Positions 48,001-54,000 of a DNA stretch of 64,000 nucleotides are shown here, piece by piece. The stretch's first letter is position 1. Every line of letters starts with the position of its first letter. A program made the position numbers. The stretch lies in NCBI RefSeq assembly GCF_054482595.1, contig NZ_CM137008.1; one strand, written 5' to 3'.

Positions 48001-51000
48001 GCTGGTCAGAGGCATTGCTGCCATCAAGGCGAACACGCATATTGATGGTGCCACCCTGACCGGTGAGGTTACTGGTGGTCAGTTTATGGAACGTTACCGG
48101 GGCGTCGCCTTTTGCAACAGCACGGCTCAGGACGGCATCCTGTGTCGTCTGATTATCAAAGCGAATCTCCCCTGCGTTAACAATATCGCCGGTACTGACC
48201 ACATCACCATTCAGTACCATGCTGGCGCCTTTACTGAGCTGTGTTCTGCCACTCAGACTTCCCCCGGCAGCCAGCGTCAGTGTTCCACGATGTCCGACAG
48301 TGGTGTTGCCAGCCTGTCCCCCGGCATTAACCGTAAAGCTGCCGCCATTTTCCAGCAGCAGGCCGCTGGCCTGACCGGATATGCCATCAATACTGAACTT
48401 ACCGCTGGCATTGGTCCCCTCAACAGTGGCACCACTGTCTGCAATCAGGGCACCACCGGATGTCATGGTGACACCTGTCGCCTTACCACCGGCAGACACT
48501 GCCAGGGTACCGCCGTCATCCACCCGTGTTTTCTGCGCTGAATGACCCTCCAGTACATCCAGACGACCGCCGGACTCCAGAACAACACCGTCAGCCTTAC
48601 CGTTTTCCACCGCGAAATTGCCCAGACGGTTGCTGCCGGTGACGGTTGCCGCCGTACTGGTGACCAGTGCGCCTCCCTGCTTCAGGGTGACATTCGTGGC
48701 TGTACCACCGGCGTTCACCTGCAGTTTGCCTTTCTGGTTAACGGTGGTGAAATCCGCCAGACCACCTTCCTTGATAATCTGCCAGCCGTCACTGTTCACA
48801 ACAGTGTCAGACGTTGTACCTCCGTTGTGCACATACTGGTACCCCCCATTCAGCGTGGTATCCAGTGCGTGACCATGTACCGTCTGGTCGCCGCCGGCAT
48901 AAACCACCGTGGTGTTTGCCACTCCGGTGGCTACCACAATCTGACGACCATTTTTATTGATGGTGGTACGTACGGCATCTCCGCGAACAAACTGTCCGGT
49001 ATCAGCATTTTCCGCATCCGGTCCTCCTTCTGCGCCGGTATTCACAACCGTGTCGGTTGCCATTGCGCCGGATTTGACGGCCTGCCAGCCCTTCTCATTA
49101 ATGACGGTACCCGTTGCAATCCCGCCTTCATGTACCCACTGCTCACCGCCGTTCAGAGTGGTGTTCACTGCCTGCCCCTGAAGGCTCTGTCCTCCTCCGG
49201 CACTGATAACCGTGTCTGAAACGCTTCCTCCGGCATTCACTCTCTGAAGACCACCACCGGTGACAGTAGTGTTGTTGGCGATACCGCCATTTTGTATCCA
49301 TTGTCCGCCGGTATTGGCCTCGTTATCCGGCCCATACTCCAGCCCGGTACTGATGGTCATTCCGTTGGCCGTACCGAGGACAATCTGGTTGTCATGATTT
49401 GTCAGTGTTCCGTCGTTCACGGTTTCTCCCGCCTGTACAACCGTGTCAGCAGCCAGTGCCGGGACTGATGTGACAGCAGCAAGAGACAGTGCAACCGCCA
49501 CACCGGCGCGTTTTCCCCGTGAGCGGGCCAGTTCGGAGGCCACCACCAGGGTGCCCGTAATGTGATTCCATACCAGCCTGTAGCTGGTGTTCAGATGTCG
49601 TTTCATCAGCTTTTCCTTACAGAGGGTGAATAAAAAAGCCGGTACCCACAAATGTGGATACCGGCAGGTACAAAACAGCATGGTCAGATAAAGTGGTTTT
49701 TCCCGGGCATAAATGCTTCCCTTCTCTCATCCGCCAGAGAAGTATCAGTCCGTTGTGTGCAATTCCGTTCTGCATGATGAAGAGATTCAGCTGCCTTTTC
49801 GCAGACCATTAACCACTATAAACGATCGATAGTAACGATCGATACCTGTTTTATCGATCGTTTTATTCTATTAACGACAAGGCGGTCACGCAAGAGAAAC
49901 AGGAGGAGTATGAGGGGTTTGTGTCATGTTTTCAGTTGGTTAACGTAATGTTATCAGGCATTTCCCTGGCAGACTGTTCAGAAGAAAATCCAGTTCCATA
50001 CAGCGCGGGCAACAGAGACCACCGTGTCACGGACGGCACGCAGAACCGTGCGTGCAACAGAGGCAATACAGACGCTCTCCGCTGTGTCAAATATCCGGTC
50101 CACCGCACCGGTAAACTGTTCACGGGCCTGAGACCGGACAGATTCCGTGCGCAGCTCGTCCTGCAGGCGGGTCATCAGGGGACTGGCGGCATGGTCGGGA
50201 AGCGCTGTCATGAGCGCACTGACCAGCGTATCCAGTTCCCAGCCGGTGCGGGCCGATACGGCCACAACCGGATGTACGGGCCGGAACAGACGGAATACCG
50301 CCTCCGTTTTTTCGCGAATATTCTGTGCCTGTGCGGGAGAAGGCTGAATGCCGGCCATATCCCATTCATGGCAGGGCTCCGTTTTGTCGGCCTGCGTCAC
50401 CACAAACAGCACCTGCTGATGTCCCCGGTGCAGGATGTGTCGCCAGAAATACTCATCCACAGACAGGGCACGGTCATCGGCTTTAATCAGCCACAGTACC
50501 AGGTCAAGTTCAGGCAGAATGTCACGGTACAGGGCTTCATACTCTGCATCCCTGTCCCGGCTCTCGCCCACCCCGGGCAGGTCAGTGATAATCATACTGT
50601 GACCGTGGCCACTCAGACGGAAGCGCCGCACTTCCCGGGTGCCGGCGTGAACATCACTGACCGGGGTGACCTCCCCCTGAAACAGTGCATTACAGAGTGA
50701 GGATTTACCGGCCCCGCTTTTCCCCATAATGCCAATCACGGGTTCGTGACTGGTGAGTTTGCGCAGATGTTCCAGGATGTGACGGGAAAGTGAGTAAGGC
50801 AGGGAGGAGAGCGGTTTTTCAATTGCCTCAATGGCATCAGACGGATTCATACATGTATTCCCGGTGAAAAAAGACAAAACCCCCGCACACCGGAAAGGTG
50901 GCGGGGGACTCACGGAGATAATATATGTCTGAAATTATTTGGAATGCAGGTATATGTGGCTGATACAGGTCTGAATCTAATCTGACAGTCCGCTCTGTGC

Positions 51001-54000
51001 CAGTAGCGGACGTTACTAACATAATTCAAGAAGATTAAAGTATTCCGGAAACGATTTTGTTAGAATGTTTTAATTATGTAACCAAGATACATTTTCTTAT
51101 GAGAGTATATGCGAGTTTTTATCTTATAATCAGAAGATTACAATCTGAACTTGTGATAGTAAAGTTACATAATTAATTATGTTAACATTGAAAAAATCAT
51201 AGGAATGCTAGTGATAAAGCCTGAAATTACATCTCTATTCAAATACTGCCCTATCGGTAAGAATCAATTAAGTGCTCTTGCACAGCGGAAAATCTGGTAC
51301 TCAAAACCGGCAGGATTTAACGATCCTTTTGACACCCAATTTTATGTGAGAGGACAAAGGCATGTGTACGAACGGGAAATGGACTCTGAAAAATTATCAG
51401 CCATTTTTGGTGAAGATATGTCAGATGTAATGGTTTCCAAAAAACGTTCTCTTGATGAACTTTTGGACAGATTTAAAAGCGGTTTAGAAAAGTTAGGTAT
51501 TCTTTCACTAGCAAGCAGTAACAAAAATTTGCTGATGTGGTCGCATTATGCTTCTGAACATAAAGGTATGTGCTTAGAGTTTAAACGCATCGCCGGCACA
51601 GCCTTAGCAGATGATAAAATAACTAGGCCGATGAATTACAATGATAATTATCCATCGATACAGGCAAGTTCAATTTTAAATGAAGTCGATACATTATCTA
51701 ATAAAATTAGAATATTACATACAAAATCTAAACATTGGGAATACGAGCAGGAGTGGAGGCATGTAGTTGAGCAAGGTAATGAGTTACATCCTTGGCCCGC
51801 AGAATTAATTTCTGTTTATTTCGGCTGCAAGACAGATATGTCAGATATACATTTGGTAAGAAGTATAATTACGGACCCAAATGTTAATTACTATAAAGGA
51901 AATTTGTACAGTGATAAATTTGACATTTATTTTCAACCGATATAATTACGTAAAAACATATATACATTAACTAATGTTAAGTATTGTAAATACATCACGA
52001 TCGATTGAATGTCTGCTGTTCGCTCGCAGCGGACCTTCAGTTCATGTAACTTTTCCGCTTCGTACCAAAAGCGGACGTCAAAATGTATGTTCAGCTAGCG
52101 TAAGTTGAGCGTTTCATAATGATGTCTCTCTGCGGGTCTGACCCAACCTGACAAATATGCTCTCCAACCTCGGTAAACCCAAGCTTACGATAAAAAGAGA
52201 TTGCCCTTGGGTTATATTCCCAGACACCTAACCAGACAGGATCCGATCCCTTTGCCTCAAATTCAGCAAAGCACTTTTGCATCAGTGCTTGCGCAAATCC
52301 TTTACCATGGTAGGGCTCATCGACATACAGGCACAGAATTTCTCTGGCATAGATGCTATTGACACAGGGAGGAAACTCTTCCCACCTTAGTTGAGCGTCA
52401 ATTTGTGGCGAAAACCCATGAGTTAGAAATTCAATCAATTACAGGAAGGAAAAGTAAAGGAGGGGGTGGCTCTCTTTAGGAGAGCCATGAGTGGAAATGG
52501 ATATTAGAAGAAAGGAGTTGTTTCCACATTAAAAATTAAGTTCATACCTATCAATTACACCATTTTTTATTCTGTAAATAACATTAGATGAAATTGACTC
52601 AAAGTAAACATACCCAACTGCTTGGATTATATTTATTAGCATGCAAGAAAATGAAACAATGAATAGTGGCAGCGAGGATGTGTTGTAGTTTACCAGGTAA
52701 ATAAATTCGCCATAATACAATGGCCCACACATTGCGAGTGCTAATGATATAAATAAAAAACCTTTTATTGCTTTAATTAAAAATATAGAGGCGTTTATTT
52801 GTTTTCTTATCTTTTCATCGCCTAAGAGATAAAGGTTGAAATCTTGAGATTTTGTTGTGTCCACTGAGAAGATATTAAGAATATGTGGGTATATCAATGA
52901 TATATCCTTTGTTTTCATAAGATTCATCATCTCTATTCTCCGCGTGACGAACAGTGAACCCAACCAAAAAACCATGAATACAGGCATAGCATAACTAGCT
53001 ATTTTGGCTATACTTATCAATGATACACTAGATGCCATGTCACCTATTTTAAATGGGATAATTAAGGTTGATTCTATGTTGACTATCTCTATCTTTGAAT
53101 TACTCTCATCTTTTATTTTTCCATCCAACCAGTTCATTGCATCATGATAGTTTGCGATTTTATCTTTTTCAGGAAGGGCCGATTCTATTTTATCCCTTAC
53201 AATATAGCCCACACTTGATTTTTCAATCTCTTTTTTCAACACATCGTACATAAAGTATTTTAACTCATTAATTGAACTCACCTCATCAAGGTCTATTTCA
53301 CGCAATCCCTCATTTATCATTTTTTTTCTAATGGAAAAGAATTCATTTTCTATTTCTGATTTATATCTTACTGTGTCCATCTCTGATTTATTTATTCTTT
53401 TTCGAAAGTCTAGAATATCAGATACGCTTTCATTAACAGCTGAAATTTGTGTTTCGATAAATTCTATTTTTCTTCTTTTTGTTTCAATTTGTTGTTTTAT
53501 ATCTTTGTATGAGGTTATTAAAGCAAATAGGTTTTGGCTGCTTAATGTAATTAATAAAGAGCAGGTGAGGAAACTAAAAATAACAACAACAATACTCATG
53601 TATAATAATCTATCAAATCTCTTTCCCAGTTCGTACAACCTATCCACTATTCTTCTCACTTTCAAAGGCGATATAGATAGGTTATATCATGCCTTCATCT
53701 TTTGAACTAAACAATCTATATCAGATAACAGTTCTCTTCGCAGTTGTGTCCCTACTCTTTGGTGGCCCGTAGGCTCCTGAGCTGGACATCGTGCGGGACT
53801 ACCTCACAGTCAATTGTAAGCAGTAAAGAGGAACGAGAACCATTCATAGAGCCTAACACACTAAATGCCGCATTGAATCCCACGACTCGGCACGATCAAC
53901 GTAAGATAATCGGAGCTTGCTGCATGGTGACAAATGGAAAATGTGAAGGTAAAGAAAACGACATTACTAACTGACGTTTGTATCTAACACTGGGGACAGG

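Follow-up and report, generated by a model that had tools for sequence, protein, structure and literature searches.

Integrons hold arrays of small cassettes, mostly of a single open reading frame (ORF), between structured palindromic sites, and the gene of their tyrosine recombinase lies directly beside the array, a site adjoining its 5' end; in clusters of attC sites lacking integron integrases (CALINs), the integrase is missing. The pdif modules of Acinetobacter plasmids are cargo modules between short sites, served in trans by a Xer-type tyrosine recombinase. Chromosomal integrons are known stores of defence cassettes (bioRxiv 10.1101/2024.07.02.601686), and the slot between the tail-fibre-assembly and tail-sheath genes of P2-like prophages is a known anti-phage hotspot (Rousset et al. 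2022, PMC9122126). Among single-gene defence systems, Aristaios, a 316-aa DUF2971 protein from a lactococcal plasmid, protects against phages in an abortive-infection manner (PMC11381338) and, according to a review, interferes with phage transcription (PMC13064643). Here, an AT-rich block with a DUF2971 gene and a membrane-protein gene was analysed in a 64,000-nt stretch of contig NZ_CM137008.1 (NCBI RefSeq assembly GCF_054482595.1), hereafter the window, to whose positions all coordinates refer unless a comparison locus (L number) is named. The block consists of two independently recurring cassettes, and homology to other genomes breaks at or inside the 24-bp sites that bound them.

Two cassettes and their boundary sites

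In a repeat search, one 24-bp palindromic element turned up at four positions (50988, 52011, 52053 and 54145), where 0.15 occurrences would be expected by chance. The four sites have common arms (GTCCGCT-N10-AGCGGAC) and two kinds of centre, GTGCCA or TCGCTC, by which they were typed as A (yTGTGCCArn) or B (nnTCGCTCnn). Their layout is A-[DUF2971]-B, 18 nt, A-[GNAT remnant, membrane gene]-B, as follows:

50988..51011, plus strand: site A1, GTCCGCT-CTGTGCCAGT-AGCGGAC; left boundary of cassette 1
52011..52034, plus strand: site B1, GTCTGCT-GTTCGCTCGC-AGCGGAC; right boundary of cassette 1
52053..52076, plus strand: site A2, TTCCGCT-TCGTACCAAA-AGCGGAC, a decayed A type; left boundary of cassette 2, 42 nt from B1 start to start
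54145..54168, plus strand: site B2, GTCCGCT-CATCGCTCAC-AACGGAC; right boundary of cassette 2 and of the slot
50988..52034, plus strand: cassette 1 (A site, DUF2971 gene, B site); 1047 nt, GC 0.34
52053..54168, plus strand: cassette 2 (A site, GNAT remnant, membrane gene, 480-nt upstream region, B site); 2116 nt, GC 0.37

Cassette 1 matched positions 5784-6821 of an Enterobacter hormaechei locus (L009) with 96.8% identity over 1038 nt and cassette 2 matched positions 7592-5489 of L005 with 93% identity over 2107 nt, the flanks being unrelated in both cases; the L005 copy occupies another chromosomal setting, with yedK-like and umuDC-like genes on either side. The outer two sites fall just where the homology shared with other E. 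coli islands ends on the GTPase side (~50946-51030) and returns (54142-54150), and the inner two fall between the DUF2971 gene and the GNAT stop codon. At A1, the exchange was mapped inside TGTGCCAG, with the backbone of E. coli AGR6128 (L019) in common through the left arm and the first centre base and the L009 cargo matching from the last centre base onward. At B1, the rare left arm GTCTGCT and the centre are common to the window and L009, and divergence sets in from the right edge of the centre, the right arm not being shared. The match of B2 to L005 ends within the site, where GTCCGCTCATCGCTCA is common and the remainder has diverged. The A2 counterpart in L021 and L005 lies 15 nt past the GNAT stop codon, with an unrelated upstream and an identical downstream flank; here the crossover could be placed no finer since the centre in the window is mutated.

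The original prediction, made from the sequence of the window alone, had described 51000-53700 as an AT-rich block and suggested that it is recently acquired cargo. The composition bears this out, with a GC of 0.29-0.39 over 50750-53750 against 0.53-0.60 in the flanks, broken by a rise to 0.46 at the GNAT piece (by segment: GTPase 0.58, DUF2971 0.355, GNAT 0.454, membrane gene 0.305). The block is indeed there, and the insert is slightly wider than those limits, spanning 50950-54170. Recent acquisition also holds: the DUF2971, GNAT and membrane genes are each present in ~170 of 5426 complete E. coli genomes (~3%), all at 99% identity or more, their GC is low, and the slot that holds them varies in content between otherwise similar islands. 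We consider it probable that the block represents two site-bounded cassettes in a variable slot beside the YeeP-like GTPase gene of a CP4-44-type island, cassette 1 being a self-contained defence candidate with an ADP-ribosyltransferase (ART) fold and cassette 2 encoding a rare protein with four transmembrane segments (TMs). The boundaries of the cassettes matter more than the block itself. In AGR6128, the same slot (L019 8155-11843, with the same GTPase backbone) holds a type 1 defence-associated reverse transcriptase (DRT) gene, frameshifted there, followed by a HEC-08 cassette and then by the gene of a 200-aa recombinase.

Sites, recombinase and cargo in other genomes

The sites were surveyed using a strict 21-base A pattern and one genome per species, and this retrieval by A sites accounts in part for how little the A centre varies. 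The pattern occurred in at least 120 stretches, covering many genera of Enterobacterales and also Alpha-, Beta- and Deltaproteobacteria and Acidobacteria metagenome-assembled genomes (MAGs). The fetched loci contained 68 complete A..B cassettes, cassette 1 of the window among them, mostly of 0.4-1.3 kb with a single ORF and some in tandem (L119, L136, L125, L095, L058, L120), with a B-to-A spacing of 38-42 nt. In non-enterobacterial MAGs (Hyphomicrobiales and others; L032, L035, L036, L071, L073, L075, L088, L092), the A site is preceded by a partner hairpin that has the same arms, the loop TTACCCCCnAA (TTACCCCC in the alphaproteobacterial copies) and a linker of 21-22 nt versus 14-18 nt. This partner is a lineage-specific version of the B site, and its differing loop in the alphaproteobacterial copies argues against simple contamination.

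In E. coli, the B-A junction was present in 739 of 5426 genomes (14%), at 1-3 places each, and the three contexts examined were all accessory DNA (a P2-like prophage, a lambdoid prophage and another CP4-like island). By this distribution, the E. coli sites fall outside the class of repetitive extragenic palindromic (REP) sequences and bacterial interspersed mosaic elements (BIMEs). In the P2-like prophage of strain KKo003 (L143 7507-10218), the identical junction sits in the slot between the tail-fibre-assembly and sheath genes and parts a 461-aa hypothetical protein from a DUF3800 protein; PMC9122126 makes no mention of hairpins or palindromes at this hotspot. An identical 101-nt junction was also found in two P2-like phages, Yersinia phage GMG73 and Escherichia phage 899 (records OP880301.3 and PV533660.1).

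Across the sites, 92% of arm positions are paired, and 52 one-sided changes as compared with 4 compensated ones indicate that the arms are conserved mostly as sequence. Compensated changes were in weak excess for short hairpins (4 observed vs 0.85 expected, P 0.007), the corresponding values for a long attC-like cross-pairing being 2 and 0.93 (P 0.24). The sites are flanked by AY on the left and RTTG on the right, and many A sites can be read as 9-bp inverted arms around a 6-bp centre. Inverted arms around a short centre are the usual layout of tyrosine-recombinase core sites. Two peculiarities of array structure were noted in passing. In Mixta and related genera (L023, L024, L025, L026, L118, L119, L120), many A sites follow the same ~60 nt (GGCTGACGACCCGGCAACGCCGGGGAGCCGGAGGTGGCCATCAGG...), which looks like the end of a repeated gene or element abutting the arrays; in Citrobacter youngae (L033 8975-9088), three A-type sites follow one another every 39 nt without an intervening B site, a pattern seen nowhere else.

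A tyrosine recombinase of 199-201 aa (for example L019 14082-14684), consisting of the catalytic domain only and Xer/IntI/FimB-like, is encoded within ~6 kb of every DUF2971 orthologue examined, in several arrays and in 904 of 5426 E. coli genomes. It scored below every NCBIfam cut-off, with 19.8 bits for the integron-integrase model (cut-off 265) and, at best, 58-60 bits for XerA (cut-off 220). A B-type site lies at about -63 of the recombinase gene in all seven enterobacterial copies, and two diverged copies (60% and 55% identity) carry local variants of the site. No recombinase gene was found within the 64-kb window, where the cassettes are an orphan (recombinase-less) array. The interval between the B-type site and the recombinase start is a conserved leader, AACCATACTCAAATCTCCnACATTGCAGGAGATTTGAGTATG (L019 14020-14084), also seen at L009 6807-6871, at L021 25561-25626 and in L081, L142 and L144; a 12-bp stem in it (ACTCAAATCTCC / GGAGATTTGAGT) would mask both the Shine-Dalgarno sequence and the start codon ATG, suggesting that the recombinase is controlled at the level of translation. 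In Shewanella and Vibrio (L013 6001-7378, L014 6001-7363, L015), the DUF2971 orthologue is convergent with a 198-aa recombinase of the same family (~50% identity by eye) beside a type I restriction-modification (R-M) operon. No site of the A/B pattern was found at these three loci; either the association of recombinase and DUF2971 predates the site sequence of the enterobacteria, or the sites here are too diverged to be recognised.

The cargo of the E. coli cassettes, as identified with PADLOC, includes PD-T7-1 (E 7e-157), a DRT type 1 reverse transcriptase, HEC-08 and PDC-S31, the last being the class of the DUF2971 protein in the window. Among 20 single-gene cassettes from other genera, clear PADLOC matches were obtained for two, one of them another PDC-S31, and the remaining cargo includes a FosA-type enzyme, GNATs, TetR, Nudix and an RhtC-type exporter. 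The FosA-type protein, a fosfomycin-resistance glutathione transferase of Escherichia sp. ESNIH1 (L051 4489-4911) in a 612-nt A..B cassette (4404-5015), reached 196.8 bits against the curated NCBIfam cut-off of 180, and the cassette system therefore also moves antibiotic-resistance genes. A cassette system for defence only was rejected because the cargo elsewhere is mixed: this is a general accessory-gene cassette system with a notable share of defence genes, similar in content to chromosomal integrons.

As regards mechanism, cassettes may arrive or be swapped through recombination inside the site centres, A pairing with A and B with B, and the difference between the A and B centres would prevent A-by-B recombination and favour cassette exchange. 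In other genomes, a B-type site always stands ahead of the gene of the 200-aa tyrosine recombinase, which is the likely enzyme.

The likeness to integrons covers the small, mostly single-ORF cassettes between palindromic sites, the recombinase gene next to a site in other genomes and the cargo (GNATs, VOC/FosA, TetR, defence genes), and the array in the window resembles a CALIN in having no integrase. In contrast to IntI (~320 aa with an IntI-specific insertion), the recombinase is a catalytic domain of 200 aa; each cassette carries two different sites as compared with one attC per integron cassette; and the genes stand in either orientation with their own upstream regions, in short arrays scattered through prophages and islands. 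An attC-like reading, as one long hairpin with R''/R' boxes (RYYYAAC / GTTRRRY), was discarded, there being two 24-bp elements for which covariation favours short hairpins or duplex sites. The pdif modules differ in their XerC/XerD dif-like 11-6-11 site, which has another sequence and host range, and in their use of housekeeping XerCD. No paper printing or describing the 24-bp sites was found in the literature library searched, and an earlier partial description is possible; the title of an article on P2-like prophages by Nilsson et al. (2004, Mol Biol Evol 21:1) speaks of site-specific recombination.

We tentatively propose that the A/B sites and the 200-aa recombinase make up an uncharacterised cassette system, integron-like but mechanistically distinct, which would use heterospecific duplex sites across Proteobacteria and stock the hotspots of P2-like and lambdoid prophages and CP4-type islands with defence, FosA resistance and other genes, and that the four-TM protein would be a new stand-alone phage-exclusion protein; this wider proposal is possible rather than probable. 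The sites could instead be passive repeats of the REP/BIME kind or terminators, with cargo shuffled by homologous recombination and the 200-aa recombinase unrelated to them, for instance an invertase. Such an explanation would fit arms that are sequence-conserved palindromes occurring in pairs, like BIMEs, the lack of a recombinase near most sites, a cargo that is a general mix of accessory genes and an element that is multi-copy in Pantoea, Mixta and others. It nevertheless appears unlikely, as the junction in E. coli is confined to a few places in a minority of genomes, unlike REPs, the same 24-mer occurs with lineage-specific partner loops across classes of Proteobacteria, and the crossovers at A1, B1 and B2 fall in or at the edge of the 6-10-bp centre. 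Moreover, every enterobacterial copy of the recombinase starts with a B-type site, including the two diverged copies with their local variants, and the stems are not followed by T-tracts and were not called by the terminator scan. If recombination at the sites is real, they provide a physical mechanism for swapping single defence or resistance genes in hotspots of prophages, satellite-like islands and chromosomes, which have so far been defined only via their conserved flanking genes, and, with their 24 bp, a simple sequence by which thousands of genomes can be searched for further cargo, unknown defence genes included; a compact tool for cassette exchange might also be built from the 200-aa recombinase and the two heterospecific sites.

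The encoded proteins

The two cassettes contain the following genes and upstream region:

51205..51945, plus strand: DUF2971 / PDC-S31 protein, 246 aa, predicted ART fold
52091..52438, minus strand: 5'-truncated GNAT acetyltransferase, 115-aa ORF, keeping residues 71-172 of a 172-aa protein
52529..53647, minus strand: membrane protein, 372 aa (GTG 53647), of a rare unannotated family
53666..54144, minus strand: non-coding region upstream of the membrane gene (~480 nt), within cassette 2 and conserved in the L005 match; no Rfam match

The ORF listing contained the 246-aa ORF of the original prediction, with the motifs GFNDPFD and LLMWSHYASEHKG, and confirmed that it is convergent with the other intact gene, that of the membrane protein. 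The protein matches Pfam DUF2971 (PF11185) with an i-Evalue of 9.1e-11 (residues 111-185 on model positions 1-88 of 89), in agreement with RefSeq, and also phrog_1762. A screen against defence-system models had been recommended in the original prediction; with PADLOC, the protein matched four hidden Markov models (HMMs) of PDC-S31, the best being PDLC04990 (E 2.5e-58, 195.9 bits, residues 5-244 on profile positions 3-256 of 259). The gene is thus a further member of an already known candidate class, to which it conforms in its near full-length HMM match and its single-gene organisation; PDC-S31 is itself a bioinformatic candidate, membership of which carries no tested function, and no paper naming it was found in a literature search.

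The AlphaFold model of the DUF2971 protein (predicted local distance difference test score, pLDDT, 92.5; predicted template-modelling score, pTM, 0.85) has the split beta-sheet fold of ARTs, with DarT and Tpt1 as the nearest structures, and the DUF2971 profile gave no match to the sequences of the PDB. In an alignment of 67 sequences, the invariant residues were N39-D40-P41, W112, H114, Y115, G121, Y145, K174, W178, Y180, E181, E183 and R185. Of these, Y115, Y145 and the two glutamates of E181-Q-E183 are consistent with the published ART assignment, as candidates for the motif II aromatic residue and the catalytic motif III glutamate (ExE). DUF2971 is assigned by PMC12522546 to the H-Y-E clade of ARTs, in the vicinity of DarT and AbiGi and with a conserved ExE, and the present fold and ExE motif agree independently with that study and with PMC11381338. 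The identity to DarT, the ssDNA thymidine ADP-ribosyltransferase of DarTG toxin-antitoxin systems, is 8-14%, the protein in the window has large helical inserts, and a DarG macrodomain antitoxin as in DarTG is not adjacent, the cassette having no second ORF and the neighbours being the GTPase gene and the GNAT fragment. Aristaios (Lactococcus plasmid pUCCL641, pUCCL641_199) shares with the present protein the DUF2971 domain, the predicted ART fold and the occurrence as a single gene on mobile DNA; it is 70 aa longer and from Firmicutes, and the shared Pfam domain is that of a very large family.

The neighbours of the DUF2971 orthologues include many defence genes. Specifically, an orthologue with 94% identity (Enterobacter hormaechei) adjoins a type III cyclic-oligonucleotide-based antiphage signalling system (CBASS), an 80% orthologue (Raoultella) lies in an integrase island at ssrA/smpB with Schlafen-like, Lit-like (Peptidase_U49) and HD/dGTPase-like genes, and the 66-67% orthologues of Shewanella and Vibrio adjoin type I R-M; homologues also occur in SSU5-type phage-plasmids and a Pseudomonas phage. 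Across five contexts, the neighbours were wholly different except for the 200-aa recombinase, so that there is no conserved partner, and cassette 1 contains the DUF2971 ORF alone. Taken by sequence comparison, the protein is probably anti-phage. It would be a self-contained protein of the abortive-infection type, like Aristaios, inactive until infection, and would then ADP-ribosylate nucleic acid or another essential target and so block phage gene expression; that nucleic acid is the target has a chance of a little under one half in our estimate. A "hypothetical" E. coli gene is hereby placed in a testable class, as a candidate for anti-phage defence by a single ART-fold protein with kinship to the sole validated DUF2971 system, and E181 and E183 are clear targets for mutation.

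In cassette 2, the acetyltransferase is truncated, as had been predicted: a 172-aa full-length relative (L017/L021, WP_015965750) shares 95% nucleotide identity over 308 nt and aligns with its C-terminal part only, and the NCBIfam PaiA-like match (profile positions 92-170 of 172) falls short of a complete GNAT fold. The membrane ORF measures 378 aa when read from TTG 53665, and PGAP and all homologues start at GTG 53647, giving 372 aa. Hydropathy bore out the layout expected for it, namely an N-terminal TM, a charged region of 165 residues (28 K+R, 32 D+E) and three C-terminal TMs, and the AlphaFold (AF2) model (pLDDT 88.9) agrees with it, TM1 being followed by ~165 residues that are helical up to a small beta-sheet at their end, and then by three TMs. 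The family is small: it forms 20 clusters (90% identity) in a collection of 5.8 billion proteins, and 74 representatives out of 1.84 billion were matched at E<=1e-3; no relatives were found in sequenced phages. Its alignment is conserved at the N-terminus, with the motif LGKRxERLLY, and in the three-TM core, where W228, T235-R236-x-x-E239, P254-H255-x-x-N258 and E350 are invariant, and is variable in between. By the positive-inside rule, the variable helical domain is predicted to be periplasmic, and on this predicted topology the invariant polar residues would cluster at the cytoplasmic face. In distant family members (L007 7172-7537, L145 7160-7498, L147 1397-1825), a small downstream ORF of 112-142 aa overlaps the stop codon, with a signal-peptide-like N-terminus in Citrobacter; the E. 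coli subfamily is without it.

The original prediction had raised a membrane-disrupting effector, paired with a sensor, as a possible layout. This found no backing in the searches: Pfam, NCBIfam, PADLOC and PHROG gave no match, one fold search returned generic helical bundles, and Foldseek returned the protein's own family together with weak hits to MacB/FtsX and Tweety (TM-scores 0.1-0.2), with no link to membrane disruption or to a known defence family. An independent role in phage exclusion or defence is a guess that we regard as doubtful.

The idea that the two genes form one abortive-infection system, in which the DUF2971 protein senses infection and the membrane protein disrupts the membrane, draws on the adjacency and convergence of two AT-rich genes, each of which occurs in E. 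coli genomes only together with the other. Co-occurrence in E. coli was, however, uninformative as a test of coupling, and this linkage says nothing on function because all copies are one recently spread, clonal block of at least 99% identity. In more distant relatives, each gene was found without the other in all cases examined: homologues of the membrane protein with 89% (L005/6), 73% (metagenomic, L002-4) and 28% identity (Citrobacter braakii, L007/8), as well as a 34% relative beside a MobA/MobL relaxase, have no DUF2971 neighbour, and the DUF2971 orthologues at 94%, 80% and 66-67% identity have no such membrane protein nearby. The sensor-plus-effector model is therefore unsupported. The genes also lie in different cassettes that recur separately, are convergent, not co-transcribed, and have a dead gene fragment between them, and PDC-S31 and Aristaios are single-gene systems; we regard the pair as highly improbable, and a tempting model is removed. 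Of the predicted defence role, what stands is its plausibility for the DUF2971 gene, from its PDC-S31 match and defence-gene neighbours. For this gene alone, other functions come into question: it might act as a toxin between bacteria, serve as an addiction module of the island or be a secreted ART effector, the role proposed in Legionella. PMC12522546 predicts secretion as effectors for 18% of DUF2971 proteins and describes further operon contexts, the defence role of this clade is predicted from comparison, and cassette cargo is generally not defence-specific. These functions seem rather improbable for a 1-kb cassette without an antitoxin, immunity gene, secretion signal or secretion-system gene, whose orthologues stand consistently among defence genes and whose sole experimentally tested relative is an anti-phage abortive-infection protein. 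The membrane protein, for its part, might derive from a permease of the FtsX/MacB type (type VII ABC), as a leftover or a lone subunit, or from some other transporter, and be unrelated to phage. It has the same topology, with TM1, a large extracytoplasmic domain and then three TMs, a few family members are auto-named "ABC transporter permease", and MacB- and FtsX-like proteins are among the weak Foldseek matches (E 0.07-0.3). With no FtsX or MacB_PCD match in Pfam and no ATPase gene nearby, the four-TM topology is the only point of likeness, and we give this assignment a low probability.

The surrounding island

The window is 100% identical to E. coli O157:H16 Santai, in which the block lies in a CP4-44-type island adjoining cadC, in the order CbtA/CbeA, Ag43, GTPase, block and decayed genes. 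Neither non-coding RNA families nor regulatory signals stood out in the region: an Rfam search of 50700-54400 gave no match at E<=1, and a promoter and terminator scan of the block gave counts near the shuffle expectation. The flank on the left of the slot is common to ~4500 E. coli genomes and contains:

49978..50913, minus strand: YeeP-like GTPase gene, conserved island backbone left of the slot; "GTPase family protein" in RefSeq in the identical record

To the right of the slot, the island is decayed (54200-56450; L001 15610-18139), with a truncated hypothetical gene and a fragment of an AAA-family ATPase annotated by RefSeq, followed by intact hypothetical and helix-turn-helix genes; similar fragments were also seen in another CP4-like island (L144).

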